Source of the DNA: Cytophagales bacterium
Lineage (GTDB): Bacteria; Bacteroidota; Bacteroidia; Cytophagales; UBA9547
Length of the DNA: 64,000 bases
Direction of reading: 5' to 3'
NCBI GenBank assembly: GCA_013297755.1
Contig: JAAFIH010000017.1
Span: 26,264-90,263, forward strand
The notes under the pieces were generated by a model, which was not told the origin of the DNA, made no database searches, and saw only the letters and a list, made by a program, of their open reading frames with translations. Positions 9,543-63,500 of the stretch are shown here, piece after piece; position 1 is the stretch's first letter; each line of letters begins with the position of its first letter. Made by a program: the position numbers and the translations under genes.

Positions 9543-11036
9543 ATGAAATTTTTATCCTATTTAGTCAAACCTATTGCTATTTTTATTACCAAAAGGAATG
9601 AAAAATGGATTAATCAACCCGTTCGATTTCAACAAAAAATATTGCTTAATTTAGTAGAAAAAGCAAAAAATACAACTTTTGGCCAAGATCATCATTTTGA
9701 TAAAATCACAAATTATGATAGTTTCAAAAAAAATATACCAATCTCAGATTACGAAAATCTAAAGCCTTATATCGAAAGAGTAAAATCTGGCGAATCAGAT
9801 GTATTATGGCCAGGCAAGCCTTTGTATTTTGCCAAAACATCAGGCACTACATCAGGCACCAAATACATCCCAATCAGCAAAGAATCAATTTCATATCATA
9901 TAAATTCGGCCAGAGATGCCCTTTTTAGCTATGTAAATGAAAAAAAAGATGCTCGATTTTTCGACCATAAACTAATTTTTTTATCAGGCAGCCCTGAAAT
10001 CGAAACTATCAATGGAATTTATGTTGGTAGATTATCAGGTATATCCAATCACCACGTGCCTCAATGGTTACGAAAAAACCAAATGCCTACTTACAAAACT
10101 AATTGTATAGAAGACTGGGAACAAAAAGTTGATGCTATTGTAGAAGAAACATTACCAGAAAAAATGTCGCTCATTTCTGGTATTCCACCCTGGGTACAGA
10201 TGTATTTTGATAAATTAGAAACAAAAACTGGCAAAAAGATAAAAGATATATTCCCCAATTTTTCACTTTTTGTTTATGGGGGTGTCAATTTTGAGCCATA
10301 CAAGCAAAAACTTTTTGAAAGTATAGGAAAAAAGGTTGATAGTATAGAAACCTACCCAGCCTCAGAAGGATTTATTGCTTATCAAAATTCTCAAAACGAA
10401 AGAGGTTTATTATTACTTGTCAATAATGGTATTTTTTACGAATTTATAACTGTGGATAGTTATTTTTCGGATGCTCAGGTTCGTATTTGTATCGAAAATG
10501 TAGAAATAGGTGTAAATTATGCTTTAATTATAAATTCAAATGCTGGCTTGTGGGGATATTCTATTGGAGATACTATCAAATTTGTATCATTGTTTCCTCA
10601 CAAAATAGTCGTAACTGGTAGAATCAAGCATTTTATTTCAGCATTTGGCGAACATGTGATAGCCCAAGAGGTAGAAAAATCGATGGAATATGCTTGTATG
10701 CAACATCCTGAGGTAAGAATATCAGAGTTTACGGTAGCACCCCAAGTAGTAGATAAGCAAGGTGGTCTGCCCTACCATGAATGGTTCATTGCATTTTCTA
10801 CCCTTCCTAATAATATGGCTTCTTTTGCCAAGCATTTGAATACTAAATTATGTGAATTAAATACCTATTATGATGATTTGATTAAAGGAAATGTGTTACA
10901 ACAACTAAAAATTACGGTTGTTGAGCCAGATGCTTTTATAAATTATATGAAAACCATTGGCAAATTGGGCGGCCAAAACAAAGTACCTAGATTGAGCAAT
11001 GATAGAGAAATTGTAGAGAAACTGAAAAACAAATAG
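9543..11036 (+). CDS. GH3 auxin-responsive-promoter family protein (adenylate-forming)
   Basis: FAKTSGTTSGTKYIP P-loop-like motif and overall GH3 layout. The ATG at 9543 is preferred over the TTG at 9537. Confidence 0.8.
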   Translation: MKFLSYLVKPIAIFITKRNEKWINQPVRFQQKILLNLVEKAKNTTFGQDHHFDKITNYDSFKKNIPISDYENLKPYIERVKSGESDVLWPGKPLYFAKTSGTTSGTKYIPISKESISYHINSARDALFSYVNEKKDARFFDHKLIFLSGSPEIETINGIYVGRLSGISNHHVPQWLRKNQMPTYKTNCIEDWEQKVDAIVEETLPEKMSLISGIPPWVQMYFDKLETKTGKKIKDIFPNFSLFVYGGVNFEPYKQKLFESIGKKVDSIETYPASEGFIAYQNSQNERGLLLLVNNGIFYEFITVDSYFSDAQVRICIENVEIGVNYALIINSNAGLWGYSIGDTIKFVSLFPHKIVVTGRIKHFISAFGEHVIAQEVEKSMEYACMQHPEVRISEFTVAPQVVDKQGGLPYHEWFIAFSTLPNNMASFAKHLNTKLCELNTYYDDLIKGNVLQQLKITVVEPDAFINYMKTIGKLGGQNKVPRLSNDREIVEKLKNK

Positions 11037-30789: not shown

Positions 30790-30799
30790 TGGTAAATGA

Positions 30800-30865
30800 T
30801 TAATTGTTAATTGTTAATTGTTAATTGTTAATGGTTAATTGTTAATTGTTAATGGTTAATTGTTA
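30800..30865. repeat. heptanucleotide tandem array (TTAATTG)x9
   Basis: Read directly: nine consecutive TTAATTG/TTAATGG units starting 11 nt after the stop codon. Confidence 0.9.
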
Positions 30866-30871
30866 AAAAAA

Positions 30872-30897
30872 AGCCTCAAGAAATTGAGGCTTTTTTT
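30872..30897 (+). terminator. Rho-independent terminator
   Basis: AGCCTCAA-gaaa-TTGAGGCT followed by T7. Confidence 0.75.
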
Positions 30898-30943
30898 ATC
30901 AATAATATGCTAGATTCATAATTTATAACTCATAATTTATAAC

Positions 30944-31430
30944 TACTATCTACCAACTACCAACTCCAAACTACCAACTACCAACTCCAAACTACTAACT
31001 ACCAACTACCAACTACCAACTATCAACTATCAACTATCAACTACTAACTACCAACTCCCAACTACTAACTCCAAACTCCCAACCACCAACTCCCAACCAC
31101 CAACTCCCAACTACCAACTACCAACTACCAACTACCAACTACCAACTACCAACTACCAACTACCAACTACCAACTACCAACTACCAACCACAAACCACTA
31201 ACTACCAACTACTAACTCCCAACTACCAACTACAAACTACCAACTCCCAACTCCCAACTACCAACTCCAAACTACCAACTACAAACTACCAACTCCCAAC
31301 TACAAACTACCAACTCCTAACTCCTAACTCCCAACTACCAACTACAAACTACCAACTACCAACCACAAACTACTAACTACCAACTCCCAACTCCCAACTC
31401 CCAACTACCAACCACCAACTATTTTCAAGA
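30944..31430. repeat. heptanucleotide tandem array, about 70 units, consensus CT(A/C)CCAA
   Basis: Uninterrupted 7-nt periodicity (CTACCAA, CTCCCAA, CTCCAAA, CTATCAA, CTACTAA, CCACCAA) over about 490 nt, in a single orientation. It is preceded by 2 x TCATAATTTATAAC. Confidence 0.9.
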
Positions 31431-31514
31431 TATTGAAATTTTAGTTTGGTTTATTTAGTACTAAAATACTATTTTTGTAACACATAATTTTTCTAAAAAA
31501 ACCTATTTAATAAT

Positions 31515-32417
31515 ATGAAAAATCAAACACTAGAAGTTGTAATGGATGGCTTAATGCGTAGATACATTGAGCGAGTGCCTGATGTAAAAAAAATAACTTC
31601 AGCAATGGTAGCCCATAACATCATCAAGAGTCTAGATGATATAGAGAACGATCATGTTGCCTTTAGAACTCTAGGGATAGACCATTTGGGCATACAGTCT
31701 TTTGAAAAGATGTTTTTAAAATTAGGGTATTCCAAAAAAGATTATTTTAATTTTGAAGGAAAAAAATTGAATGCCTACTGGTATGCTCCACCAACTGACA
31801 AATTTCCAAGAATATTTTTGAGTGAATTAAGAGTTGATACCTTATCTGAAAAATCACAAAAAATAATAAAAAAATATACCCAAAATATCACATCTGATCC
31901 TGTAGATAATTTGAATTTAGACAATGGTTTTGAAATAGATAATTTTCTTCACTCGCCTTTATGGAATCTACCCTCTTGGCAAGATTATCAAGATTTGCAA
32001 ACTGAATCTGAATATGCTGCTTGGGTTATTTATAATAGATATTACTTAAATCATTATACAATAAGTGTACATAACTTACCTGATGGATATAATGATATAT
32101 ACGACTTTAATATATTTTTGGAAAATCTTGGTATAAAACTCAATAACTCTGGTAGCGTTGTTAAAGTAAGTCCTGATGGTAATTTATTACAAAGCTCAAC
32201 TGTTGCAGAAATGATTAGGGCAAAATTTTCTGAAGGTACAGAACATGAAATATCTGGCAGTTATGTTGAATTTGCAGAACGTAAGATATTGCCTCAATAT
32301 AAAAACTTAGCTAAATCTGAAATTAAAAGAATACACAGAAGAGAAGGCTTTGAAACAAATAATGCAGATAAAATATTTGAAAGCACATTTTCAACTCAAA
32401 CGAATAGAAAATCTTAG
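31515..32417 (+). CDS. DUF1338 / HglS-like 2-oxoadipate dioxygenase-decarboxylase family protein
   Basis: N-terminal MDGLMRRYIERVPDV ... NDHVAFRTLG and C-terminal SYVEFAER, typical of DUF1338. Confidence 0.65.
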   Translation: MKNQTLEVVMDGLMRRYIERVPDVKKITSAMVAHNIIKSLDDIENDHVAFRTLGIDHLGIQSFEKMFLKLGYSKKDYFNFEGKKLNAYWYAPPTDKFPRIFLSELRVDTLSEKSQKIIKKYTQNITSDPVDNLNLDNGFEIDNFLHSPLWNLPSWQDYQDLQTESEYAAWVIYNRYYLNHYTISVHNLPDGYNDIYDFNIFLENLGIKLNNSGSVVKVSPDGNLLQSSTVAEMIRAKFSEGTEHEISGSYVEFAERKILPQYKNLAKSEIKRIHRREGFETNNADKIFESTFSTQTNRKS

Positions 32418-47316: not shown

Positions 47317-47362
47317 AAAATTTGAAATTTATACACAAAAATAATAAAAATTATACACAAAG

Positions 47363-47409
47363 AATTCATAATTCATAATTCATAATTCATAATTCATAAT
47401 TCATAATTT
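47363..47409. repeat. heptanucleotide tandem array (AATTCAT)x6-7
   Basis: Read directly. It occupies the gap between the SDR stop (47410) and the vapB start. Confidence 0.85.
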
Positions 47410-48189
47410 CTATAGTGCCCTATCCAAATGCGTATAGCCGCCATCTACATATAGAATTTGCCCAGTTGTGTGTGCCGAAACTTCTGAGGCAAGAAATAAA
47501 ACTGTGTTTGCGATTTCTTCTGCAGTTGTAAAGCGATTTTCAAGTGGAATTTTTGATGTTATTTTCTTTAATTTTTCTTCTGGATTGGCAAAAGTTTTTA
47601 TCCATCTATCGTAAAGAGGTGTATAAACCTCAGCAGGAATAACCGAGTTTACTCTAATTCCAAATGGCAAAAGTTCTACTGCCCATTCTCTTGTTAAAGC
47701 ATTTTGAGCTCCTTTGCTAGCAGCATAACCAGATGTGCCACCCTGCCCAGTTACCGCAGTTTTAGACCCAATATTAATGATATTTCCTTTGGTTTTCTTC
47801 AAATAAGGCAGTGCAAAATGAGCCAAATTATAGTAATGAAACAGGTTTTTGTGCATGGATTCGATAAACTTTTCTGGCGAACCATGTTCTAATCCAACGC
47901 CATCGTTTACACCAGCATTATTAATCAAAACATCGATTTGTCCATAAATAGAAATGGTTTTTTCAATCGCATTTTTACAATCCAAAACATCAGAAAGTTC
48001 TGTTTTAATAAATTGAAATTCAGCTTTGAGATTTTTTAGCTTTTGCTCAATTTCTATTCCAGCAATATCCGAGCGACCCAAAATCACTACTTTTGCACCT
48101 TCAGAAACAGCCCCAAGCGTTATTGCCTCGCCAATACCAGCTCCTCCGCCTGTAACGATGATAACTTTGTTTTTTAATTTTAAATCCAT
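47410..48189 (-). CDS. SDR family oxidoreductase; candidate L-fucose dehydrogenase by context
   Basis: TGGGAGIGEA Rossmann motif, NNAG, and the YxxxK context YAASKGA. Confidence 0.75.
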   Translation of the reverse strand: MDLKLKNKVIIVTGGGAGIGEAITLGAVSEGAKVVILGRSDIAGIEIEQKLKNLKAEFQFIKTELSDVLDCKNAIEKTISIYGQIDVLINNAGVNDGVGLEHGSPEKFIESMHKNLFHYYNLAHFALPYLKKTKGNIINIGSKTAVTGQGGTSGYAASKGAQNALTREWAVELLPFGIRVNSVIPAEVYTPLYDRWIKTFANPEEKLKKITSKIPLENRFTTAEEIANTVLFLASEVSAHTTGQILYVDGGYTHLDRAL

Positions 48190-48196
48190 TTTTTTA

Positions 48197-48284
48197 ATGT
48201 GTTATGTGTAATGTGTAATGCGTAATGTGTAATGTGTAATGTGTAATGCGTAATGGTAATGCGTAATGTTTAATAGGTAATGCT
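48197..48284. repeat. heptanucleotide tandem array (GTGTAAT/GCGTAAT), about 12 units
   Basis: Read directly. It lies immediately upstream of the SDR start; the sense strand reads ATTACAC repeats. Confidence 0.85.
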
Positions 48285-48320: not shown

Positions 48321-49892
48321 CTAGATATTATAAAATTTTATTGCATTTTTTGCCATGATTTTTTCTTGTTCGTTGATACTTAAATCAGAAATATAGTTTG
48401 ATACAATTCCTAAAACTTGTTGATAATCAGCGGCTAGTAAACACACAGGCCAATCGGAGCCATAAATCAATCTATCAGTTCCAAACGTGTTGAAAACGGT
48501 ATCTAATACTTGTCTAAAATCAGATTCTTTCCAACTTTGCCAATGGGCTTCGGTTACCATGCCTGAAACTTTGCAAAATACATTGGGCAAATGTTTAAAT
48601 GCCTGCATATCATTTTTCCATTCACTAAAATCTTGGTTACGAATATCAGGTTTAGCCAAATGGTCAATCACAAATTTTTGATTTGGAAATTCTTGAACCA
48701 GTTCCAATGCCTCTTCCAATTGATGTGGTTTTAGTAATAAATCGTAAGTATAATTTTGGTTTTTAAGCTTTGAAATAAAATATCTAAACTTATCATCAGA
48801 CATAAATCCGTTTGGCTTTGCTTGGATGATATGTCGGAAACCTTTTAATAGTTCGTAGTTGGGAGTTTGTAGTTGGGAGTTCGTAGTTGGGAGTTCGTGG
48901 TTGGGAGTTCGTAGTTGGGAGTTCGTAGTTGGGAGTTCGTGGTTGGGAGTTCGTAGTTGGGAGTTCGTAGTTGGGAGTTGGGAGTTCGTAGTTAGGAGTT
49001 CGGAGTTAGGAGTTGGGAGTTCGTAGTTGGGAGTTCGTAGTTGGGAGTTAGGAGTTAGGAGTTGGGAGTTCGTAGTTAGGAGTTGGGAGTTCGTGGTTCG
49101 TGGTTCGGAGTTATTTTTCTCCGAACTAAAACCTTTCTCCGAACTACGAACTACGAACTCCGAACTATTACCTTTCTCCGAACTACGAACTCTGAACTCC
49201 GAACTATTTCCTTTCTCCGAACTACGAACTCCGAACTCCGAACTATTTCCTTTCTCCGAACTAAAACCTAAATCTGCCCAGCCCACAACACCTTTTATAA
49301 AATCATGTTTTGAAGCCAAATCTAATAAAAACTCTGTTTCTTGCCATGTTTCGGCAGCTTGAACGGCAATAATTCCGTAGTTTGTAGTTGGGAGTTCGTA
49401 GATGGGAGTTCGTAGTTCGTAGTTGGGAGTTCGTAGTTCGTAGTTGGGAGTTCGTGGTTCGTAGTTGGGAGTTCGTGGTTGGGAGTTTTTTTTCTCCGAA
49501 CTCCGAACTCCGAACTCCGAACTATTTTTTTTCTCCGAACTACGAACTAAGTTCTCCAAACTATTACCTTTCTCCGAACTACGAACTACAAACTCCGAAC
49601 TAAAACCTTTCTCCGAACTCCGAACTCCGAACTCCGAACTATTATTTTTCTCCAAACTATTACCTTTCCCCGAACTACGAACTACGAACTCCGAACTATT
49701 ACCTTTCCCCGAACTACGAACTACGAACTCCGAACTATTACCTTTCCCCGAACTAAAATCATCAGGAAGAAATGATTTTTTAATCACTTCCATTCCATCA
49801 CCAATCCAATCAAATTCTGGATTATTTGCATCGTAATTCCAAAAATGCACATGAGAATCTATAAAGTTCACGGTTGGTTGTTGGTTGTTCAT
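48321..49892 (-). CDS. amidohydrolase-2 family protein (L-fucono-1,5-lactonase-like) carrying two in-frame repeat insertions
   Basis: Conserved blocks FIDSHVHFW, GIIAVQAAE, GVVGWADL, KGFRHI, FVIDHLAKP and LIYGSDWPV. They are interrupted by about 126 and about 139 codons of low-complexity sequence. Total is 523 aa against my recollection of roughly 280-290 aa for this family. Confidence 0.75.
   Translation of the reverse strand: MNNQQPTVNFIDSHVHFWNYDANNPEFDWIGDGMEVIKKSFLPDDFSSGKGNSSEFVVRSSGKGNSSEFVVRSSGKGNSLEKNNSSEFGVRSSEKGFSSEFVVRSSEKGNSLENLVRSSEKKNSSEFGVRSSEKKNSQPRTPNYEPRTPNYELRTPNYELRTPIYELPTTNYGIIAVQAAETWQETEFLLDLASKHDFIKGVVGWADLGFSSEKGNSSEFGVRSSEKGNSSEFRVRSSEKGNSSEFVVRSSEKGFSSEKNNSEPRTTNSQLLTTNSQLLTPNSQLRTPNYELPTPNSELLTTNSQLPTTNSQLRTPNHELPTTNSQLRTPNHELPTTNSQLQTPNYELLKGFRHIIQAKPNGFMSDDKFRYFISKLKNQNYTYDLLLKPHQLEEALELVQEFPNQKFVIDHLAKPDIRNQDFSEWKNDMQAFKHLPNVFCKVSGMVTEAHWQSWKESDFRQVLDTVFNTFGTDRLIYGSDWPVCLLAADYQQVLGIVSNYISDLSINEQEKIMAKNAIKFYNI
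48847..49262. repeat. inverted-arm heptamer element inside the lactonase CDS (insertion 2)
   Basis: Plus strand: about 263 nt of TTGGGAG/TTCGTAG units, then the apex TTCGGAG-ttattttt-CTCCGAA, then about 145 nt of CTCCGAA/CTACGAA units with CTATTTCCTTT spacers. Confidence 0.85.
49377..49755. repeat. inverted-arm heptamer element inside the lactonase CDS (insertion 1)
   Basis: About 110 nt of TTGGGAG/TTCGTAG units, then the apex GGGAG-T8-CTCC, then about 262 nt of the complementary CTCCGAA/CTACGAA units in 39-nt higher-order repeats. Confidence 0.85.
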
Positions 49893-49898
49893 AGAGAA

Positions 49899-50255
49899 TT
49901 AAGATTTTATTGATTTTTTTAGTCCACTTATCATTTTGATTATTTCTTCTAATTTTTGGTATTGATTATTAAAGTCTACCTCTAAAATTATATTTCTTTT
50001 TTTTCCAAGATGCAAACAACTAACACATTCTATTGCTGACCTCATGGCTATTGAAAGAAATCTAGCAAATTCAGGTTTTGTCTGACCAGTTGAACCTTCT
50101 GCAATATTTAATACAATAGAATCAGCAGCTCGTTGAAATTGGCTTGATAAAACATACTTTTCTTCGGAAGGGAATTTTTTTATCAAAATATTAACTTCTA
50201 AAGAATAATCTAAAGCCTTTTGCCAAACTTGTAAGTTTTCAAAATTAAATGCCAT
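49899..50255 (-). CDS. four-helix-bundle protein (23S rRNA intervening-sequence protein family, TIGR02436-like)
   Basis: FENLQVWQKALDY...FPSEEKYVLSSQFQRAADSIVLNIAEGS...EFARFLSIAMRSAIE, 118 aa. Confidence 0.8.
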   Translation of the reverse strand: MAFNFENLQVWQKALDYSLEVNILIKKFPSEEKYVLSSQFQRAADSIVLNIAEGSTGQTKPEFARFLSIAMRSAIECVSCLHLGKKRNIILEVDFNNQYQKLEEIIKMISGLKKSIKS

Positions 50256-50256
50256 G

Positions 50257-50437
50257 GTTTTTGGTTTTTAGTTTTTAGTTGGGAGTTCGTAGAATTTAGT
50301 TGGGAGTTCGTAGAATTTAGTTCGTAGTTCGTAGAATTTAGTTTGTAGTTCGTAGAATTTAGTTCGTAGTTCGTAGTTGGGAGTTGGTTGTTCATAGAAT
50401 TGAGTTTTTAGTTGGTGGATTTTAGTTTTGGAGTTTA
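50257..50437. repeat. heptamer array, G-rich orientation (left arm of a large intergenic inverted repeat)
   Basis: 21-nt higher-order unit AGTTGGGAGTTCGTAGAATTT x4 plus TTTTTAG/TTGGGAG units. It is the reverse complement of the array at 50663-50874. Confidence 0.85.
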
Positions 50438-50662
50438 TTTTGAAATTATTAGTCTATCGATTAAATTATTTTTTTTGGGATAAATAGTTACTAAGTGATG
50501 TTACGCTGATTTTTTTTTAAATCATTGTCAGTCTTATTTTTTCAAGCATTCATAGGTTATTAACAATATTAAAATTTCAATAAAATTATAGTTTTGCGTA
50601 ACATCAATTACTAAATATAACTTATTAACTGGATTCGACATAAAATTTAATAAATAATAAAC

Positions 50663-50874
50663 TAATTACAACAAACTACAAACAACGAACAATCGATTCC
50701 CAACTCCCAACCACTAACTCCCAACTATGAACTAAATTCTACGAACTACCAACTACGAACTACGAACTAAATTCTACGAACTCCTAACTACAAACAACGA
50801 ACTAAATTCTACGAACTCCCAACTCCTAACAACGAACTCCCAACTCCCAACTACGAACTCCCAACTACCAACTG
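50663..50874. repeat. heptamer array, C-rich orientation (right arm)
   Basis: It contains AACTAAATTCTACGAAC x3, the exact complement of the left-arm unit, plus CTCCCAA/CTACGAA units. It runs into the last codons of the FAH-family gene. Confidence 0.85.
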
Positions 50875-51807
50875 TCTTTGCTCTCCCAACCCATCTATTC
50901 CCAACTCTACTATATCACCTGCTTTTAGGTATTGTGGTGGATTGAATCCTAATCCTACTCCTGCTGGAGTTCCAGTAGAAATTACATCTCCAGGCAATAA
51001 AGTCATAAATTGACTGATGTAGCTTACCACAAATGGCACATTGAAAATAAAATCATTGGTATTGCTATCTTGCTTCATTTCTCCATTTACTTTGAGCCAA
51101 AGTCTAAGATTGTGCACATCTTTTACTTCATCTTTGGTGGCTAAAAATGGACCAAGAGGAGCAAAAGTATCGCAGCCCTTTCCTTTATCCCACTGTCCGC
51201 CACGCTCAAGCTGAAAAGCTCTTTCACTATAATCATTATGCACACAATAGCCGGCAACATAGTTTAATGCCTCATTTTCAGACACATAAGTGGCTTTTTT
51301 GCCAATTACAATAGCAAGTTCTACTTCCCAATCGGTTTTTTCAGAGGTTTTTGGAATTATAATATTTCCGTTGGGGTCGTTCAAGGCAGTGGTAGATTTA
51401 AAGAACAAAATAGGCTCTTTAGGAATAGGCGAATTGGTTTCGTGGGCATGAAGTCTATAATTCAATCCTACACAAACTATTTTAGATGGACGAGCTACGC
51501 AAGAAGCCAGTTTGGGAGTTGGGGCTTGGGAGTTCGTAGTTGGGAGTTCGTAGTTCGTAGTTGGGAGTTGGTAGTTCGTAGTTGGGAGTTGGGAGTTCGT
51601 AGTTGGGGCTTGGGAGTTCGTAGTTGGGAGTTCGTAGTTCGTAGTTGGGAGTTTGTCCAATTCTAAGGTTTTTAGTTTTTCAAGCCCACCATATGCAAAG
51701 AAATCTTCATTAAAATCTGAAAAGATGCTGCTTACATCATAGATTTTATCATTGGCTAATAAGCCTGGTTTTACTTGATTGTTTTGGTAAAATCGTACTA
51801 GTTTCAT
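50851..51807 (-). CDS. fumarylacetoacetate hydrolase (FAH) family protein; candidate 2,4-diketo-3-deoxy-L-fuconate hydrolase, with an in-frame heptamer insertion
   Basis: PSKIVCVGLNYRLHAHE, WEVELAIVIGK, QWDKGKGCDTFAPLGP and TLLPGDVISTGTPAGVG. A 46-aa LPTTNYE/LPTTNSQ tract lies between the N-terminal lobe and the catalytic domain. Confidence 0.8.
   Translation of the reverse strand: MKLVRFYQNNQVKPGLLANDKIYDVSSIFSDFNEDFFAYGGLEKLKTLELDKLPTTNYELPTTNSQAPTTNSQLPTTNYQLPTTNYELPTTNSQAPTPKLASCVARPSKIVCVGLNYRLHAHETNSPIPKEPILFFKSTTALNDPNGNIIIPKTSEKTDWEVELAIVIGKKATYVSENEALNYVAGYCVHNDYSERAFQLERGGQWDKGKGCDTFAPLGPFLATKDEVKDVHNLRLWLKVNGEMKQDSNTNDFIFNVPFVVSYISQFMTLLPGDVISTGTPAGVGLGFNPPQYLKAGDIVELGIDGLGEQRQLVVGSS
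51514..51651. repeat. heptamer array inside the FAH CDS (single orientation, 138 nt)
   Basis: TTGGGAG/TTCGTAG/TTGGGGC units on the plus strand. The coding strand reads the stop-free CTCCCAA/CTACGAA version as (LPTTN[YS][EQ])n. Confidence 0.85.
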
Positions 51808-54463: not shown

Positions 54464-54467
54464 AATA

Positions 54468-54630
54468 GTTTTTTAGTTTTTAGTTGGGAGTTCGTAGTTG
54501 GGAGTTGGGAGTTGGGAGTTCGTAGTTGGGAGTTCGTGGTTGGGAGTTCGTAGTTGGGAGTTCGTAGTTGGGAGTTAGTAGTTAGTAGTTGGGAGTTCGT
54601 GGTTTTTAGTTCGTGGTTTTTAGTTTGAAG
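54468..54630. repeat. heptamer array TTGGGAG/TTCGTAG (G-rich on plus strand)
   Basis: Read directly. It fills the gap between the ABM-domain gene and the mutarotase gene; the sense (minus) strand reads CTCCCAACTACGAA up to the mutarotase ATG. Confidence 0.9.
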
Positions 54631-54651
54631 TTCCATTTCATAAACACTATG

Positions 54652-54966
54652 TTAGCTATTGTTTTTATTTTCCGATTCAAATATCGTTTCGTAATGTTCA
54701 ACTGTCGGAAACGGGTCGTAATAATGATGCAAAATCTTTTTCCATTCCAAATATTCTGCTGATAGTCTAAATCCAATTGTATGGTCTTCCAAATTTTCCC
54801 AGTCCACAAGCAAAATGTATTTATTTTTCTGTTCCAAACATTTTCGCAATGAGTGTCTCAAATACCCTTTAATAGAACTAATATATTGTCCTGCTATCAA
54901 AAAATCTTTTTCAAAGTTATCTTCTTGTCCACTTTTTACATTCAATATAGCAACTTCTAAAATCAT
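54652..54966 (-). CDS. antibiotic-biosynthesis-monooxygenase (ABM) domain protein
   Basis: 104-aa ferredoxin-like fold pattern (ILEVAILNVKSG...FE..F ... LLVDWENLEDHT.GFR). Confidence 0.65.
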   Translation of the reverse strand: MILEVAILNVKSGQEDNFEKDFLIAGQYISSIKGYLRHSLRKCLEQKNKYILLVDWENLEDHTIGFRLSAEYLEWKKILHHYYDPFPTVEHYETIFESENKNNS

Positions 54967-55155: not shown

Positions 55156-55307
55156 ACAACCTACTCCCAACACCCAACTACGAACACCCAACTACAAACT
55201 ACGAACTACGAACTCCCAACTACAAACTACGAACTCCAAACCACGAACTCCCAACTACAAACCACGAACACCCAACTACAAACTACGAACTACGAACTAC
55301 TAACTCC
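55156..55307. repeat. heptamer array CTCCCAA/CTACGAA/CACCCAA (C-rich on plus strand)
   Basis: Read directly. It abuts the stop codon of the second fucosidase (55308). A short opposite-orientation array (55066-55096) lies about 60 nt away. Confidence 0.9.
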
Positions 55308-56672
55308 CTACTTCAATTCTATCTCAAAAACCGTATTTATTTTATCGGGCATTGGAAAAGTTTGATAACAAGGTCTATCAACATTTATGTAAACATTTTT
55401 GCCTGTATTATCTCCCCACCAAGTGGTTTCGTACCTGATTTCTGAGCCATCTTGTAAAAGATTCACTCGTTTTACTTTATCTGAATAATCTTTTAAAACA
55501 ATTCCTCCAATGGCAGGATACATTCTGTGAGCGAATAGAGATTTCCCATTAGAAGTAAATATTCCCCAATCATAACGAGGCATAGTACTAGCACCACAGC
55601 CAAATATGCTTTTTCCATTTTTTTGCATCCAATTTCCAACTTCTGCTAAAATATCAGTTGATTGTTTCGGGATTCTACCCAAAGCATCTGGACCAACATT
55701 GAGTAATAAATTACCATTTTTGCTCACACAGTTTACAAGTGTATGAATCACCAAAGGAGCTGATTTCCAATTGTTATCATATCTATTATAGCCCCAAGAG
55801 TTGTTTAAGGTTAAACAAGATTCCCAAGGGAGTGGTCTTCCTAGTTTGTCAGTGATGGCTTTTTCTGGAATAGTTTGTTCTGGTGTGTCAAAATCCCCAA
55901 ATGAATTTTCTTCCATGCCTGTGGTGCCGTCTCCACCCAATCTATTATTTAAAATAATGCTTGGTTGGAGTGTACGCACCATTTCTACTAATTCTTTAGC
56001 TTTCCATTTTTCGCCTTTCATTTCATCATAGCTAAAATCAAACCACATGATGTCTATTTTGCCATAGTTGGTACAAAGTTCTTTTACCTGACCGTGCATA
56101 AATTTGATGTAATTGTCCCAATTGATTTTTTCATCTTTATACTTTTCATTTCCACGCATTGGATGATGGGTATCTTTAAATTTGGGGTAATCAGGATGAT
56201 GCCAATCAATTACTGAAAAGTATAAGCCTACTTTTAAACCCTCTGCACGTAAGGCTTCCACGTATTCTTTGATAATATCACGTTTAAAAGGTGTATTGGT
56301 AATTTTATAATCTGTTTGTTTGGTATCCCAAAGAGCAAAACCTTCGTGGTGTTTGGCTGTGAGTACTACATATTTCATGCCTGCTTGTTTGGCAGTGCGA
56401 GCCCATTCTTTGGCATCAAATAAGTAAGGATTAAAGTTTTTAAAATACGCTTCGTCATAGACTTCGTTAGTTATTTTTTCAACACTTTTGACCCATTCGC
56501 CTCTTGAAGGTATGGAATATAAACCAAAATGGACAAACATACCAAAACGTGCATCACGATGCCATTCTGTGCGTTTGATTTTTGATTCATAACTATTGTC
56601 GTTGGCAGCTGGATTTTGTGCAAAACAAAATATTTGAAAAATCAATAATAATGCTGTATATACCTTTTTCAT
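55308..56672 (-). CDS. alpha-L-fucosidase (GH29), secreted
   Basis: WHRDARFGMFVHFGLYSIPS, YVVLTAKHHEGFALW and GNLLLNVGPDALG motifs, with a signal peptide. Confidence 0.85.
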   Translation of the reverse strand: MKKVYTALLLIFQIFCFAQNPAANDNSYESKIKRTEWHRDARFGMFVHFGLYSIPSRGEWVKSVEKITNEVYDEAYFKNFNPYLFDAKEWARTAKQAGMKYVVLTAKHHEGFALWDTKQTDYKITNTPFKRDIIKEYVEALRAEGLKVGLYFSVIDWHHPDYPKFKDTHHPMRGNEKYKDEKINWDNYIKFMHGQVKELCTNYGKIDIMWFDFSYDEMKGEKWKAKELVEMVRTLQPSIILNNRLGGDGTTGMEENSFGDFDTPEQTIPEKAITDKLGRPLPWESCLTLNNSWGYNRYDNNWKSAPLVIHTLVNCVSKNGNLLLNVGPDALGRIPKQSTDILAEVGNWMQKNGKSIFGCGASTMPRYDWGIFTSNGKSLFAHRMYPAIGGIVLKDYSDKVKRVNLLQDGSEIRYETTWWGDNTGKNVYINVDRPCYQTFPMPDKINTVFEIELK

Positions 56673-57940: not shown

Positions 57941-58170
57941 AGAAGTTCCACTTTTTTGAAAAGTGGAACTTCTACATTTACAAAGATACCATCGCTCCAA
58001 ACAAAGGTATCTTTATCATAAAATTTATGCGTAAGCAAAAGCCCCCTTCGGGGTTCTGTGCATCGAACAGAAGTACTTTCAGGGGGCTTTCTATCAAAAG
58101 CCCCTTTCGGGATTCTGTCCATCGAACAGAAGTACTTTCATGGGGCTTTCCCTGAAGTACCACTTTTTAA
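57941..58170. repeat. mosaic of nested hairpin modules (composite repeat, copy 1)
   Basis: Modules in order: AGAAGTTCCAC-ttttttgaaaa-GTGGAACTTCT; AAGATACC...GGTATCTT; two copies of AAAGCCCCCT..TTCTGT-gcatcga-ACAGAA..AGGGGGCTTT; a degenerate GAAGTACCAC hairpin. The same module order recurs at 63262-63500. Confidence 0.8.
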
Positions 58171-58697: not shown

Positions 58698-61600
58698 ATG
58701 AAAAATTCAATATTCAGCCCCCAAACCCCCGAAGGGGGCTTTCTGAGACTACAAACTTCAAACATTGTACTCCAATTCAAAAATCTTGCGCCAGCCTCAA
58801 ATACAAAAAAAGTCCTTTTTAAAGCCCCCTTCGGGGGTTTGGGGGCTGTTCTTTTCACATTCCTCCTCCTTACCCACCTCACCTTTGCTCAACGCACCTT
58901 TGCCCCACAAGTTACCTACGCCACAGGTACTAATCCATACAGCGTAGCGATAGGCGACCTTACTGGCGATGGCAGAGCAGATTTGGCAGTGGCGAATAGT
59001 AATATCAACACCATAAGTGTATATACCAACACAGGCAGCGGCAGCTTTGCCCCACAGGTAACCTACAACACAGGTTCTAATCCATACAGCGTATTTATAG
59101 GCGACCTTACAGGCGATGGCAAAGCCGATTTGGCAGTAGCGAATTATATTAGCAATACCGTAAGTGTATATACCAACACAGGCAGCGGCAGCTTTGCCCC
59201 ACAAGTAACCTACGCCACAGGTTCTCGTCCTTGTAGCGTAGCGATAGTTGACCTTACAGGCGATGGCAAAGCCGATTTGGCAGTAGCGAATCGTAGTAGC
59301 AATACCGTAAGTGTATATACCAACACAGGCAGCGGCACCTTTGCCCCCCAAGTTACCTACGCCACAGGTACTAGTCCATACAGCGTAGCCATAGGCGACC
59401 TTACAGGCGATGGCAGACCCGATTTGGTAGTAGCGAATAGTAATAGCAATACCGTAAGTGTATATACCAACACAGGCAGCGGCAGCTTTGCAGCCCAAGT
59501 AACCTACGCCACAGGGTCTGGTCCATTCAGCGTAGCGATAGGCGACCTTACAGGCGATGGCAAAGCCGATTTGGCAGTAGCGAATAATGGTAGCAATACC
59601 GTAAGTGTATATACCAACACTGGCAGCGGCAGCTTTGCAGCCCAAGTAACCTACGCCACAGGTCTTGGTCCAATCAGCGTAGCTATAGGCGACCTTACAG
59701 GCGATGGCAGAGCCGATTTAGCAGTAGCGAATCAGAGTAGCAATACCGTAAGTGTACTCACCAACACAGGCAGCGGCACCTTTGCCCCCCAAGTTACCTA
59801 CGCCACAGGTACTACTCCATGGAGCGTAGCCATAGGCGACCTTACAGGCGATGGCAAAGCAGATTTGGCAGTAGCGAATTATAATAGCAATACCGTAAGT
59901 GTACTCATCGCACAAGAGGTGCAGTTTATCAATGGGTTTTTAGTTTCAAATAAGGTATATGGCAGTACTTTTGCTTTTAATGCAACAGCTACAAGTGGCT
60001 TGCCGGTGAGCTACAGCAGTTCAAATCCTAGTATTTTAAGTCTTGTGGGCAATGCTGCTACAGCTACAGGTGTAGGAGTAGTTACAGTTACAGCTTTTCA
60101 AAATGGCAATGCTACTTTTGCAGGAGTTACACTTACGGGTGTGCTTACCATTACCAAAGCCAACCTTACTGTTCAAGGCAATAATAATACTAGGGTATAT
60201 GGAACTGCTAACCCTGCTTTTACAAGTTCGGTTACAGGTTTGGTATTGGGCAGCACAGTAAATGTAACCTACAGCACCACAGCCACACCTAGTAGCAATG
60301 TGGGCAATTATCCTATAAACATAAGTGTTACAGGCATAGCCTTGGCAAATTATAACCTCACTACTTTGGCAGGGGTTTTAACCATAACAGCAAAACCTGC
60401 CACCGTTTCGGGCAATAATTTTAGTAGAGAATATAGTGCTTCTAACCCCATATTTACAGGCAGTGTTTTAGGTTTGGTAAATAATGATGCAATTACATAT
60501 AGTGGTTCTACATCCGCAACAAGCCTTTCGGGAATTGGCGTTTATGCAATAATTGCAACCGCTGTTGGTACAAACATTCTCAATTATCAATTCTCCATTC
60601 TCAATTCAAACCTCTCCATTACCGCAAAATCAGCCACCGTTTCGGGCAATAATTTTAATAGAGTTTATGGTTCAACCAATCCTATATTTACAGGTACCGT
60701 TTTAGGTTTGGTAAATGGCGATGTACTTAATTATAGTGGTTCTACTACAGCCACAAGTCTTTCTGGAGTTGGCGTTTATGCAATTCTTGCAACTTTTGTG
60801 GGAAATAATGTGTCAAATAATTATAAACTCTCCATTCTCAATTCTCAATTAACTATTACTGCTTTGGCTTTTGTGAGTACAGCACCTAGCCCTATTGTTT
60901 TTAATAGTACAGTTTATGATGGTCAGCCAAAAGTGCCTTCTGTGGTTGGTTTGCCTAGCACTTCGGGAGTAAACTATACCTACAATGGCAGTAGCACAGC
61001 TCCCACCAATGCAGGAAGTTATACAGTTGTGGGTATAATCACAGACCCAAATTACACAGGTACAGTTACAAGTGTAATCATAATATCTCCATCAGATATT
61101 AGCAATCAACTTTCGGTAGCTGGGCTTAGCAATAGTATGTATAATGGTTCGCCCAAAACTACAAGCATTACAGGTTTGCCTTTAGGAGTTGCCAGTAGCG
61201 TTACCTACAATGGTAGCCCAACTGCACCTACAAACGCAGGTACATATACAGTTATAGGAATTGTAAATGATAATAATTATATAGGTACAGTTACAAGTGT
61301 TATCGTAATTTCTCCATCAGACATTAGCAACCAACTTTCGGTAGCTGGGCTTAGCAATAGTGTATATAATGGTTCGCCCAAAACTACAAGCATTACAGGT
61401 TTGCCTTCAGGAGTTGCCAGTAGCGTTACCTACAATGGTAGCCCAACTGCACCTACAAACGCAGGTACATATACAGTTATAGGAATTGTAAATGATAATA
61501 ATTATATAGGTACAGTTACAAGTGTTATCCTAATTTCTCCATCAGACATTAGCAACCAACTTTCGGTAGCTGGGCTTAGCAATAGTATGTATAATGGTTC

Positions 61601-62747
61601 GCCAAAAGCTACAAGTATTACAGGTTTGCCTTCAGGAGTTGCCAGTAGCGTTACCTACAATGGTAGCCCAACTGCACCTACAAACGCAGGTACTTACACA
61701 GTTATAGGAATTGTAAATGATAATAATTATATAGGTACAGTTACAAGTGTTATCCTAATTTCTCCATCAGACATTAGCAACCAACTTTCGGTAGCTGGGC
61801 TTAGCAATAGTGTATATAATGGTTCGCCAAAAGCTACAAGCATTACAGGTTTGCCTTCAGGAGTTGCCAGTAGCGTTACCTACAATGGTAGCCCAACTGC
61901 ACCTACAAACGCAGGTACATATACAGTTATAGGAATTGTAAATGATAATAATTATGTAGGCACAACCACAAGCACAATGGTAATTTTACCAGTTTCGGCA
62001 ACCATAGTTGGCAACAATGTAAACAGAGTATATGGCTTAGCTAATCCCATATTTACAGGTACAATATTAGGTTTGGTAAATAGCGATGTTATAAATTATG
62101 AAGGTTCTACATCAGCCACAAGCCTTTCGGGAATTGGGGTTTATGCAATCATAGCCACAGCCACAGGAACAAACGTGGGTAATTATCAATTCTCCATTTT
62201 CAATGCTCAATTAACAGTAACACCAGCAAATGCAACAGCAAGTGTATCTGGCATAGTGTCGGATGGAAATATTGTTAACGCCACTGTGCCAACAAGTATT
62301 ACCATTTCGGGTTCAGGTTTCGAGCCAGGAGCAAGTGTTACTGTCAATGGAGTGGTTTTGTCAAACTTAATAGTAATTAACGGCTCAACAATTATAGCTA
62401 CTTTGCCAGCTGGCTCAGCCACAAGTAGCAATGTGAGTGCAATAGTTCAAAACCCAAACCAAAATCCAAGTGCCTCAACTGCTATAGTTGTAGTAAACGC
62501 CAATCCAACTTCTACTAGCCTACCAGTCTACCAATCTACCAACCTTACAGTTTTCCCCAATCCAAGTAAAGGTAGTTTTACAATTTCGGCATCTATGCCA
62601 CTAGGCAAAATAATGATTTACACCCTCGATGGAAAATTGGTGCAAACCAAAACTACCAATGAAAACAAACTATTTGTTTCGGGTATTTCAACAGGAACAT
62701 ATATTGTATATGTGGATAAATCGAGTGTAAAAGTAGTGGTTGAATAG
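58698..62747 (+). CDS. FG-GAP/VCBS beta-propeller + MBG + Ig-like repeat protein with a T9SS type A sorting domain
   Basis: Seven 49-aa FAPQVTYATG..P.SVAIGDLTGDGKADLAVAN..SNTVSVYTNTGSGS repeats. MBG-like (R)VYG..NPIFTG..LGLVNGD modules. Four near-identical 75-aa Ig-like modules. C-terminus LTVFPNPSKGSFTI...GTYIVYVDKSSVKVVVE. Confidence 0.8.
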   Translation: MKNSIFSPQTPEGGFLRLQTSNIVLQFKNLAPASNTKKVLFKAPFGGLGAVLFTFLLLTHLTFAQRTFAPQVTYATGTNPYSVAIGDLTGDGRADLAVANSNINTISVYTNTGSGSFAPQVTYNTGSNPYSVFIGDLTGDGKADLAVANYISNTVSVYTNTGSGSFAPQVTYATGSRPCSVAIVDLTGDGKADLAVANRSSNTVSVYTNTGSGTFAPQVTYATGTSPYSVAIGDLTGDGRPDLVVANSNSNTVSVYTNTGSGSFAAQVTYATGSGPFSVAIGDLTGDGKADLAVANNGSNTVSVYTNTGSGSFAAQVTYATGLGPISVAIGDLTGDGRADLAVANQSSNTVSVLTNTGSGTFAPQVTYATGTTPWSVAIGDLTGDGKADLAVANYNSNTVSVLIAQEVQFINGFLVSNKVYGSTFAFNATATSGLPVSYSSSNPSILSLVGNAATATGVGVVTVTAFQNGNATFAGVTLTGVLTITKANLTVQGNNNTRVYGTANPAFTSSVTGLVLGSTVNVTYSTTATPSSNVGNYPINISVTGIALANYNLTTLAGVLTITAKPATVSGNNFSREYSASNPIFTGSVLGLVNNDAITYSGSTSATSLSGIGVYAIIATAVGTNILNYQFSILNSNLSITAKSATVSGNNFNRVYGSTNPIFTGTVLGLVNGDVLNYSGSTTATSLSGVGVYAILATFVGNNVSNNYKLSILNSQLTITALAFVSTAPSPIVFNSTVYDGQPKVPSVVGLPSTSGVNYTYNGSSTAPTNAGSYTVVGIITDPNYTGTVTSVIIISPSDISNQLSVAGLSNSMYNGSPKTTSITGLPLGVASSVTYNGSPTAPTNAGTYTVIGIVNDNNYIGTVTSVIVISPSDISNQLSVAGLSNSVYNGSPKTTSITGLPSGVASSVTYNGSPTAPTNAGTYTVIGIVNDNNYIGTVTSVILISPSDISNQLSVAGLSNSMYNGSPKATSITGLPSGVASSVTYNGSPTAPTNAGTYTVIGIVNDNNYIGTVTSVILISPSDISNQLSVAGLSNSVYNGSPKATSITGLPSGVASSVTYNGSPTAPTNAGTYTVIGIVNDNNYVGTTTSTMVILPVSATIVGNNVNRVYGLANPIFTGTILGLVNSDVINYEGSTSATSLSGIGVYAIIATATGTNVGNYQFSIFNAQLTVTPANATASVSGIVSDGNIVNATVPTSITISGSGFEPGASVTVNGVVLSNLIVINGSTIIATLPAGSATSSNVSAIVQNPNQNPSASTAIVVVNANPTSTSLPVYQSTNLTVFPNPSKGSFTISASMPLGKIMIYTLDGKLVQTKTTNENKLFVSGISTGTYIVYVDKSSVKVVVE
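58716..58847. repeat. GC-rich palindromic element (CCCCCGAAGGGGG family) inserted in-frame in the signal-peptide coding region
   Basis: AGCCCCCAAACCCCCGAAGGGGGCTTT ... AAAGCCCCCTTCGGGGGTTTGGGGGCT, 27-bp perfect terminal inverted repeats. It is exactly 132 nt, which is 44 codons. Confidence 0.8.
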
Positions 62748-62760
62748 GTAACAAAGGATG

Positions 62761-63248
62761 CGAACGCAGACAGGGTTTTGAACCCTGTCTGCGTTTGATT
62801 TTTTAAAGATTCTGTCGCTTGGAGCGATGATTTCTTTTTTTAAACTACAAACCTATAAGGTTTTAAAAACCTTATAGGTTTGCGAACGCAGACAGGGTTT
62901 TGAACCCTGTCTGCGTTTGATTTTTTAAAGATTCTATCGCTTGGAGCGATGATTTCTTTTTTTTAACTACAAACCTATAAGGTTTTAAAAACCTTATAGG
63001 TTTGCGAACGCAGACAGGGTTTTGAACCCTGTCTGCGTTTGATTTTTTAAAGATTCTATCGCTTGGAGCGATGATTTCTTTTTTTTAACTACAAACCTAT
63101 AAGGTTTTAAAAACCTTATAGGTTTGCGAACGCAGACAGGGTTTTGAACCCTGTCTGCGTTTGATTTTTTAAAGATTCTATCGCTTGGAGCGATGATTTC
63201 TTTTTTTTAACTACAAACCTATAAGGTTTTAAAAACCTTATAGGTTTA
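62761..63248. repeat. 4 x 122-bp near-identical tandem repeat, each unit built of three hairpins
   Basis: Units start at 62761, 62883, 63005 and 63127. Hairpins are AACGCAGACAGGGT-loop-ACCCTGTCTGCGTT (+TGATTTTTT), ATCGCT-tgg-AGCGAT, and the perfect palindrome AAACCTATAAGGTTTT/AAAACCTTATAGGTTT. Confidence 0.9.
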
Positions 63249-63261
63249 TTTACCGATTTTT

Positions 63262-63500
63262 TAAAAAGTGAAACTTCTACGTTTACAAATATACCATCGC
63301 TCCAAACAAAGGTATCTTTATCATAAAATTCATGAGTTAGCAAAAGCCCCCTTCGGGGGTTTGGGGGCTTACTATCAAAAGCCCTCTTCGGGGTTCTGTG
63401 CATCGAACAGAAGTACTTTCAGGGGTTCTGTGCATCGAACAGAAGTACTTTCAGGGGGCTTTCCCTGAAGTTCCACTTTTTTGAAAAGTGGAACTTCTAC
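63262..63500. repeat. mosaic of nested hairpin modules (composite repeat, copy 2)
   Basis: Same module order as 57941-58170, in direct orientation, ending with GAAGTTCCAC-ttttttgaaaa-GTGGAACTTC. Confidence 0.8.

Follow-up and report, generated by a model that had tools for sequence, protein, structure and literature searches.

Rickettsia palindromic elements (RPEs), reportedly described by Ogata et al. in 2000, are said to be palindromic sequences lying in frame inside conserved protein genes; they occur as dispersed copies of consensus families with a fixed length of about 100-150 nt. Cyanobacterial Nezha and SDR elements and the intragenic small mobile sequences of enterobacteria carry terminal inverted repeats and target-site duplications, exist in many dispersed copies and are mobilised in trans. 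In Plasmodium and other AT-rich eukaryotes, DNA slippage produces long hydrophilic low-complexity loops that are tolerated between conserved enzyme blocks, and non-triplet repeats inside open reading frames (ORFs) are the classical mechanism of phase variation. Among 7-nt repeats, the cyanobacterial short tandemly repeated repetitive (STRR) heptamers form one class. TAACTGA repeats, found in Beggiatoaceae, Cyanobacteria and five Bacteroidetes, reach up to 43 copies in some of the Bacteroidetes and terminate ORFs in the forward orientation; the sole set that MacGregor records in a gene has two copies and lies close to that gene's end (PMC4679880). GGGAATC and GGGGAYT heptamers of Xanthomonas and Nostoc lie G-rich after stop codons and as the complement before start codons (PMC4692102). 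According to Mrazek et al. 2007, as cited in PMC4679880, many bacterial genomes contain more heptanucleotides than any other class of long simple-sequence repeat. Published accounts place such repeats between genes, scarce in coding sequence and selected against there, since a unit of 7 nt disturbs the reading frame and stops lie on one of the strands. Here we analyze 64,000 nt of a Cytophagales bacterium genome (assembly GCA_013297755.1, contig JAAFIH010000017.1, positions 26,264 to 90,263 of the forward strand; hereafter the window), in which an L-fucono-1,5-lactonase-like amidohydrolase gene carries, in an uninterrupted frame, two long inverted heptamer arrays that make up about 800 nt, roughly half, of its ORF.

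The gene (48321-49892, minus strand) appears in the ORF list as one reading frame of 523 aa without an internal stop. Its product belongs to the COG3618/L-fucono-1,5-lactonase family: Pfam Amidohydro_2 (PF04909) matched with 126.5 bits against a cut-off of 26.4 (2.3e-36), covering residues 349-522 only, and phmmer against the PDB aligned the protein with 4dlf, a COG3618 amidohydrolase from Burkholderia multivorans (structure entry), in three collinear blocks (query residues 11-45, 174-209 and 349-520 on chain residues 6-38, 51-86 and 102-285). The NCBIfam equivalog FuconLaconase scored 219.6 bits, below its 400-bit cut-off, with a contiguous match on residues 347-523 only. These low family scores arise because the family profile is split into three pieces, blocks 1 and 2 aligning separately to 4dlf, and annotation by strict family cut-offs would miss genes like this one. 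A search of 5.8 billion proteins returned 1269 homologues, and the statements below refer to the best 120 of these. Only one identical NCBI entry (P0001, on a 97.8-kb contig) shares the 523-aa length; the other 119 measure 287-323 aa, none being longer, and no frameshifted or truncated variants were found among the 120.

Despite its length of roughly twice the family norm, as the initial annotation had noted, the enzyme core looks intact from alignment and model. In an alignment of 75 sequences, the window lactonase matches each of the 36 invariant columns, among them D12, H14, H16, H354, H411 and D480, which we take to be the family's metal ligands, and 75 of the 76 columns that are at least 90% conserved are kept (98.7%, compared with a mean of 97.2% in the other homologues). 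AlphaFold2, run with the same alignment, predicted a barrel core with a predicted local distance difference test (pLDDT) score mostly above 90, and Foldseek matched the model to 4dlf and 4do7 with target-normalised template-modelling scores of 0.86-0.88 (0.86 for 4dlf), indicating a complete (beta/alpha)8 barrel with the conserved HxH, His and Asp positions. Block 1 (aa 1-45; 49758-49892, minus strand; 4dlf residues 6-38; pLDDT 89-95) comprises strand beta1 with the HxH motif and helix alpha1; block 2 (aa 174-208; 49269-49373, minus strand; 4dlf residues 51-86; pLDDT 92-96) comprises beta2, alpha2 and beta3; block 3 (aa 348-523; 48321-48849, minus strand), delimited by Pfam, the 4dlf alignment and AlphaFold, holds beta4 to beta8 with the FRH, DHLAKP and GSDWP motifs. 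Judged by these features, the gene does not look dead, and a pseudogene is disfavoured. A split gene yielding three polypeptides was ruled out: nothing interrupts the ORF, and without a Met the middle block (aa 174-208, IIAVQAAETW...) offers no ATG start for a separate polypeptide.

Between the blocks lie two segments without counterpart in 4dlf, insert 1 (residues ~46-173; DNA 49374-49757, 384 nt) and insert 2 (residues ~209-347; DNA 48850-49268, ~419 nt). The initial annotation had put them at about 379 and 416 nt between collinear blocks in a single frame, and had read their translations as (SSEKGNSSEFVVR)n followed by (LRTPNYE/LPTTNSQ)n; in all of this it agrees with our results. On the sense strand, each insert runs from an AGTTCGG/AGTTCGT block (the G-type arm) through an A-rich apex flanked by GGAG...CTCC to a complementary ACGAACT/CCCAACT block (the C-type arm). 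All of the following parts lie on the minus strand. In insert 1, the 5' arm (49494-49757, delimited by sequence and unit count) consists of AGTTCGN-type heptamers arranged in 39-nt units and encodes the (SSEKGNSSEFVVR)n peptide; the apex (49486-49493), read directly and forming the hairpin loop of the fold, is A8 in the mRNA between GGAG and CTCC; and the 3' arm (49374-49485), seen in the sequence and the period-7 scan, is built of ACGAACT/CCCAACT heptamers encoding (PRTPNYE/LPTTNY)n. In insert 2, the 5' arm (49119-49268, again from sequence and unit count) holds four 39-nt units like those of insert 1, the apex (49111-49118, by direct reading and fold) is AAAAATAA in the mRNA between CGGAG and CTCCG, and the 3' arm (48850-49110) alternates CCCAACT and ACGAACT with a 42-nt higher-order period, encodes (LPTTNSQLRTPNHE)n and was reported by Tandem Repeats Finder (TRF) as 17.8 copies of period 14.

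Both inserts are predicted to fold into very stable RNA hairpins, with minimum free energies of -149.9 kcal/mol (z = -8.7) for insert 1 and -147.6 kcal/mol (z = -11.2) for insert 2; none of 100 shuffles was as stable in either case. Thus, the long imperfect inverted repeats of the initial annotation were recovered, with two amendments: the two arms of each hairpin differ greatly in length (insert 1, 264/112 nt; insert 2, 150/261 nt), and the sense G-rich arm is made of a 39-nt unit and not of pure heptamers. TRF found arrays of period 7, 14, 21 and 39 in the inserts, most with 74-94% matches and only one block, of 2.7 copies, with 98%. The 39-nt (13-codon) unit is made up of four heptamers and a piece of 11 nt; the likeness of this piece to the hairpin apex suggests that it originated there. 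With its spacer GGAGAAAGGTAAT, the unit occurs 11 times in the window, only in the two lactonase inserts; the seven spacer copies of insert 1 fall into two runs, one of four and one of three, each in register with a 39-nt step, and the runs are shifted by 18 nt relative to each other. As the two G-type arms share a unit that is absent elsewhere in the window, sequence has probably been exchanged between them.

At the protein level, the inserts are of low complexity, rich in S, E, N, T and P, with SSEKGNSSEFVVR, SSEKGNSSEFGVR and TPNYELR as predicted tryptic peptides. AlphaFold2 gave residues 51-163 and 212-336 a pLDDT below 50 and no secondary structure. Alpha1 (43-51) and beta2 (172-177) flank insert 1, which sits on the face pointing away from the active site, and insert 2 falls between beta3 (199-204) and a short helix (337-340) preceding beta4 (349-354), a site occupied by a short alpha3 in distant homologues, where heptamer-derived sequence already replaces alpha3 in this clade. 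Mapping on the structure, a check proposed with the initial annotation, hence placed both inserts outside the conserved barrel elements in the 4dlf alignment as well as in the model. A role as an intein, domain or functional linker was considered and rejected, as Pfam found only Amidohydro_2, no structure is predicted and the composition is of low complexity. At gathering threshold, Rfam placed no family on the inserts and only one tRNA in the window, and a scan for intrinsic terminators in 48.2-50.9 kb returned none. The insert-2 peptide (141 aa), searched against the 5.8 billion proteins, gave five weak matches, all generic AACT-type translations in unrelated short ORFs; the same search missed P0001, which contains the peptide identically, so it is insensitive to low-complexity queries and the negative is a weak one.

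The reading frame through the inserts is open in a phase-specific manner. Counted by phase on the sense strand, stop triplets number 0, 4 and 17 in insert 1 and 0, 4 and 12 in insert 2, that is, no in-frame stops versus 37 out-of-frame ones over ~800 nt. Most fall in the G-type arms, for which the counts by frame were 0/4/17 in a slightly wide slice of insert 1 (49480-49757, 278 nt) and 0/1/9 in insert 2 (49112-49268, 157 nt). The AACT-type arms are largely stop-free: that of insert 1 (49374-49479) is open in three frames, and that of insert 2 has 0 stops in the gene frame and 3 and 2 in the others, the TAA-bearing CCTAACT occurring only out of frame. A pure AGTTCGT array, in turn, meets TAG in all three frames within 21 nt. 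The G-type arm remains open in the gene frame because it is built of the 39-nt unit, at whose single in-frame stop position the heptamer ends in G and not T and reads GAG or GGG in place of TAG. Intergenic G-type arrays of the same window (50698-50850 and 55163-55307) are closed by 3-5 stops per frame, and their longest stretch without a stop is 39-72 nt. Since the units were copied in phase and their stops are not independent of one another, this contrast with non-coding arrays is a stronger argument than the stop count itself. In addition, the higher-order periods of the coding arrays (21, 39, 42 and 96 nt) are all multiples of three, whereas intergenic arrays show periods of 7, 14, 21, 28, 35 and 42 nt, which is suggestive of frame-respecting growth, although not decisive. 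Translational bypass of the inserts was considered and found unnecessary, the frame being open and phase-locked.

Close relatives carry small versions of the same sequence at the same places. In the closest lactonases, which come from four independent assemblies and are 59-74% identical, heptamer-derived peptides of 10-40 aa occupy exactly both insert loops. Loop 1 spans 128 aa in the window compared with 44, 38, 26 and 11-17 aa in the closest homologues (median 12 aa, from 74 homologues), and loop 2 spans 140 aa compared with 12-25 aa. Some of these short versions are already hairpins: loop 1 of locus L003 consists of (AGTTCGT)4, a 40-nt A-rich loop and (ACGAACT)n, with a folding energy of -34.7 kcal/mol (z = -7.8), and loop 2 of L001 forms a small hairpin (z = -4.2). 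Loop 2 of L003 and loop 1 of L001 have an AACT-type array only and do not fold (z = +0.7 and -1.3, respectively). The AACT-type array is thus constant at the loops, while the opposite arm comes and goes, so the hairpin is not a conserved structure. Seeds at the same loops in relatives indicate that the sites are old and shared by descent and that the bulk of each insert is local expansion. Within 1.88 Mb of other Bacteroidota loci containing this gene, lactonase arrays occurred only in these close relatives, and among the matches listed from GTDB species genomes and JGI metagenomes the best orthologous loci were 74% (L004) and 56% identical, none of them at strain level. No heptamer arrays were found in the GyrA neighbourhoods of L165 and L166 (GyrA 91% and 83% identical); the equivalent part of the window is itself array-free, making this comparison uninformative about genome-wide array load. 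The initial annotation had called the inserts foreign and likened them to RPEs; a reading of them as discrete inserted elements was not supported, given intergenic arrays of the same heptamers, the lack of a second unit copy outside the lactonase in the window and the seeds in relatives. The converse case that it had named against itself, ancestral protein sequence, applies in part: the seeds are ancestral, but more than 100 aa of each insert are lineage-specific.

Heptamers of the form AACTNNN/NNNAGTT, with AACT or AGTT at 7-nt spacing, are endemic to the region. TRF together with a period-7 scan yielded 12 merged arrays in the window and none in 20 shuffles of it, which is far above chance. 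Five of these sites are intergenic, and a further in-frame array lies in the neighbouring FAA-hydrolase gene (50851-51807), so that, far from being confined to intergenic DNA, the arrays or array pairs lying in frame number three and total ~950 nt in two genes. The FAA-hydrolase array (51512-51656, minus strand; ORF list and TRF) encodes a 36-aa expansion (LPTTNYELPTTNSQ...) at a position where relatives have only the seed 'LSTINYQSST'. The unit sequences are AACTACG, AACTCCC, AACTCCG and AACTACC; TAACTGA or TCAGTTA dimers are absent from the window, and only the AACT core is held in common with that described unit. Other heptamers (TTAATTG, AATTCAT and TAATGTG) sit at other gene borders.

The arrays obey a polarity rule, with AACT-type arrays in the sense strand before starts in three of three cases and AGTT-type arrays after or overlapping stops in two of two; an array at 3962-3999 of L001 follows it as well. 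On the minus strand, TRF and the scans placed intergenic AACT-type arrays directly upstream of the start of a gene for a 23S rRNA intervening-sequence protein (IVP; array 50257-50442) and of a rhaM-like mutarotase (54464-54635), and AGTT-type arrays, closed by stops in each frame, across and beyond the stop codon of the FAA hydrolase (50698-50876) and directly after the stop of a fucosidase gene, 55308-56672 (array 55163-55308). The last six codons of the FAA hydrolase (LVVGSS) and its stop codon fall inside the former. The largest array, with ~69 copies of the AACTACC type (30927-31423, plus strand; TRF and scan), lies upstream of the HGLS gene (31515-32417, plus strand). Four consecutive features stand at this site: (TTAATTG)n at 30788-30866 after the stop of a protein sorted by the type IX secretion system, a terminator-like hairpin with a T-run (30870-30897), a 480-nt AACTACC-type array (30927-31423) and a promoter match (31445-31477). 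As the promoter match sits between array and gene, the array lies upstream of the putative promoter and is probably not part of the 5' untranslated region (UTR).

Nearly every intergenic spacer of the fucose operon in which the lactonase lies is a period-7 array. The spacers of an SDR gene consist of (AATTCAT)6.6 at 47357-47414 and (TAATGTG)12.7 at 48195-48282, on the sense strand, these are (ATGAATT)n following the stop codon of the gene and (CACATTA)n immediately ahead of its start. An ABM-domain gene (54652-54966, minus strand) and its AT-rich upstream region are bracketed by the AGTT-type array at 55163-55308 and the AACT-type array at 54464-54635, a G-first inverted arrangement as in the lactonase hairpins with the gene in the 'loop'.

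The operon itself, a complete fucose cluster, provides an L-fucose catabolism context, with synteny kept in relatives: two alpha-L-fucosidases, the ABM-domain gene, the rhaM-type mutarotase, two SDRs, the FAA-family hydrolase, the lactonase and an altronate/galactarate-type dehydratase, interspersed with the IVP gene and a PIN-domain gene. A Bacteroidota-type promoter pattern (consensus match only) was found upstream of the first fucosidase and none inside 44.5-56.6 kb, and the arrays are therefore probably transcribed. GC content and skew gave no sign of a foreign origin for the cluster. For GyrA, the best named match was a Cytophagales metagenome-assembled genome at 91%, cultured genera reaching only 65-68%, which assigns the bacterium to an uncultured lineage of Cytophagales. 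The IVP gene (PF05635, Avd-like four-helix bundle; 49899-50255, minus strand) lies between FAA hydrolase and lactonase in the window as well as in L001 (1540-1896), L002 and L003 (528-884); it is absent from the otherwise syntenic L164, which has a 7-nt gap there (9993-10001). In the window, the IVP gene is flanked by a direct repeat of ~27 nt, GTTGGTTGTTCATAGA(G)AATT (49876-49905 and 50383-50410), that duplicates the lactonase start region, and a small ORF (50210-50395) starts with MNNQLPTTNYE, resembling MNNQQPT of the lactonase. Seen in this context, the IVP gene resembles a cassette that recombination inside heptamer arrays has relocated.

On balance, we consider it reasonably probable that the lactonase is a live gene in which an endemic heptamer microsatellite expanded at two permissive linkers, filtered for frame and stops, and is carried as disordered loops. 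The linkers would be those from alpha1 to beta2 and from beta3 to beta4 of the TIM barrel. Short seeds, some of them already small hairpins of AGTT-type arm, loop and AACT-type arm, would have grown in place to ~125 aa each by replication slippage or unequal recombination, and selection would have retained only variants that preserve the frame without in-frame stops, the 11-nt piece of the 39-nt unit perhaps being taken from the hairpin apex. The inserts would be translated as hydrophilic, disordered surface loops of a still active enzyme, and the RNA hairpin would be a by-product of adjoining arrays of opposite polarity and not a conserved functional structure. Of the three outcomes considered in the initial annotation (tolerated loop insertions, processed RNA hairpins or a cryptic pseudogene), tolerance by the enzyme fits best, with a phase-locked ORF, 75 of 76 conserved residues and a confident core matching 4dlf; the cryptic pseudogene is disfavoured by the phase-locking and by those same residues.

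Several points weigh against this reading. Only one assembly documents the long arrays, and repeats of such length are easily misassembled. An ORF can outlast the loss of function for some time, especially with naturally stop-free C-type arms. Insert 2 starts only four residues past beta3 (GWADLG), on the catalytic face, and may thus affect activity. Furthermore, an mRNA stem of -150 kcal/mol might be cleaved or might stall ribosomes, for which reason we infer tolerance rather than observe it. Finally, all inverted pairs, in genes and between genes alike, are G-first in polarity, which pure slippage does not explain.

A more far-reaching proposal, which we regard as rather unlikely, is that in this uncultured lineage paired arrays of AGTT-type arm, spacer and AACT-type arm constitute an active recombinogenic genome system and not a passive microsatellite. 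Such a system would combine several roles: its arrays would punctuate operons at stop/start junctions, carry cassettes such as the IVP gene and invade ORFs at permissive loops, adding more than 100 aa of new disordered protein and placing a sugar-catabolic operon under heptamer-slippage (phase-variable) or RNase III-type control.

Phase variation may also be considered by itself. The lactonase and the FAA hydrolase could form a contingency locus in which slips of 7- or 14-nt units switch both genes ON or OFF, the assembled state being ON; this could coexist with the expansion of tolerated loops favoured above. Tandem arrays whose unit is not a triplet, with up to 17.8 copies, do lie in two ORFs of one operon. 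Whatever the frame, a pure heptamer array encodes one and the same peptide, and no frame of the C-type arm of insert 1 contains a stop, so a slip would affect only the sequence downstream and a second slip could reverse it. We nonetheless consider such a switch unlikely: the imperfect arrays, mostly with 74-94% matches, lower slippage rates, the target is a cytoplasmic catabolic enzyme and not a surface or restriction-modification gene, the organisation of the G-type arms in 39-nt units that keep the frame runs counter to a frameshift switch, and the best 120 homologues include no frameshifted or truncated variant, with the closest orthologue at 74% identity.

It is quite unlikely, too, that the arrays are primarily an RNA device, with the stems and the intergenic array pairs acting in cis in the polycistronic fucose mRNA as RNase III sites, decay barriers or attenuators and coding being secondary. 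The folding energies of both stems and the probable co-transcription of the arrays would suit this role, and array pairs of the same polarity bracket both a 255-nt spacer before the IVP gene and the ABM-domain gene. The G-rich heptamers after stops and their complements before starts recur in Xanthomonas and Nostoc and are mostly transcribed there (PMC4692102), and heptamers directly upstream of starts have been proposed as binding sites of post-transcriptional regulators (PMC4679880). Yet the hairpin is not conserved, some relatives having only the AACT-type arm at each loop; the arms differ grossly in length; neither an Rfam family on the window's arrays nor a terminator-like site in 48.2-50.9 kb was found; the promoter-like site at 31.4 kb puts the largest array probably outside a 5' UTR; and cleavage within the ORF would destroy the message.

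Just as improbable, in our judgement, is a mobile palindromic element, RPE-like or resembling miniature inverted-repeat transposable elements (MITEs), that inserted independently at both loops and at the intergenic sites and was then amplified internally. The 39-nt unit and the GGAG-A-rich-CTCC apexes common to the two inserts, together with the G-first polarity of every inverted pair, are what such an element would leave behind, and the compact 80-130-nt hairpin versions in relatives are comparable in size to RPEs. Moreover, presence and absence of the IVP cassette and its flanking direct repeat imply that array-associated DNA moves at this locus. A second copy of the 39-nt unit, however, is missing from the window outside the lactonase, and the junctions, read by eye and with no systematic test, revealed no obvious target-site duplications or defined termini. 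The insert peptide has practically no counterparts in the 5.8 billion proteins (the five weak matches of a search insensitive to low complexity), the array content differs at every site, no transposase is nearby, and relatives that are 59-74% identical have inherited the same sites.

A recently inactivated pseudogene, or an over-extended or chimeric repeat assembly with a fortuitously open frame, is very improbable: a single contig as the source, the NCBIfam score of 219.6 below 400, Pfam coverage of the C-terminal 174 residues only and the lack of any other family member above 323 aa among the best 120 point that way, but the low scores reflect the split profile, 75 of 76 highly conserved columns are kept, arrays occupy the same loops in four independent assemblies, 37 out-of-frame stops face no in-frame stop when no frame is open in non-coding arrays of this type, and an artefact is not expected to respect codon phase.

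The window contains further repeats unrelated to the lactonase. A 1349-aa ORF (58698-62747, plus strand) for a large surface-type protein has in-frame repeats of 147 nt (6.9 copies) and 225 nt (4.1 copies, 96% identical) at 58894-59903 and 61050-61964, with a GC content of 0.40-0.43 in the repeats compared with 0.32 for the window. Just after it, at 62759-63247, a 122-nt unit stands in four tandem copies that are 99% identical and comprises three separate perfect hairpins (GCGAACGCAGACAGGG..CCCTGTCTGCGTTTG, TCTATCGCTTGGAGCGATGA and AACCTATAAGG..CCTTATAGGTT). A GC-rich hairpin-type repeat (..AAAGCCCCCTTCGGGG.. / GGGGTTCTGTGCATCGAACAGAAGTACTTTCA) resembling repetitive extragenic palindromic sequences, and unrelated to the heptamers, occupies two sites 5 kb apart (58036-58150 and 63330-63460). 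At the other end of the window, a 467-aa ORF (653-2056, plus strand) gave a weak match of 49.5 bits, far below cut-off, to the retron Ec78 effector ATPase PtuA and may encode a defence-type ATPase.

How, then, do the lactonase inserts relate to the systems described at the outset? Like RPEs, they are palindromic and hairpin-forming, sit in frame outside the conserved core, leave the ORF open and add an extra peptide. Unlike RPEs, they are 7-nt tandem arrays with unequal arms, three to four times longer, grown from seeds and made of the same repeat as the intergenic spacers; they also do not form a dispersed consensus family, the 39-nt unit and apex occurring only in the lactonase within the 64 kb searched. 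With in-frame MITEs of the Nezha/SDR type, they have in common that a hairpin repeat is readable as protein and creates new peptide segments; they differ in that the window scan gave no second unit copy and that the junctions showed no obvious target-site duplications or termini on a reading without systematic test. The Plasmodium loops are likewise long, hydrophilic and of low complexity, rich in Asn, Ser and Thr, and placed between conserved blocks of housekeeping enzymes; in contrast to the lactonase inserts, they are eukaryotic, mostly triplet-based and devoid of an inverted-repeat architecture. Inserts of this size are otherwise absent from the best 120 bacterial homologues. A literature search, with most subscription-journal papers outside its coverage, turned up no account of inverted heptamer arrays lying in frame within Bacteroidota enzymes.

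The closest match in substance is the TAACTGA/GGGAATC/STRR class, with its 7-nt unit and its polarity at gene borders, and with an AACT core common to TAACTGA. What sets our locus apart from the TAACTGA and GGGAATC repeats is that arrays of 100-280 nt in both polarities lie inside an enzyme ORF and that the stop-bearing polarity has been remodelled into a 39-nt unit. The lactonase suggests that a heptamer repeat can spread extensively through an enzyme gene, adding ~800 nt and ~250 aa of new sequence, and that there is a frame-safe route for doing so, in which the stop-bearing polarity is recast as a unit of 13 codons and growth adds only lengths divisible by three. The locus raises the questions of how far a barrel tolerates loop insertions, whether Bacteroidota translate or cleave an mRNA stem of -150 kcal/mol and whether catabolic operons undergo heptamer phase variation. 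If the protein is made, it would be a bacterial counterpart of both the RPE and the Plasmodium low-complexity phenomena and a clear example from nature of slippage giving rise de novo to long disordered segments within a TIM-barrel enzyme. Overall, this comparison suggests that the inserts are RPE-like in behaviour, while in substance they belong with the polar intergenic heptanucleotide repeats.

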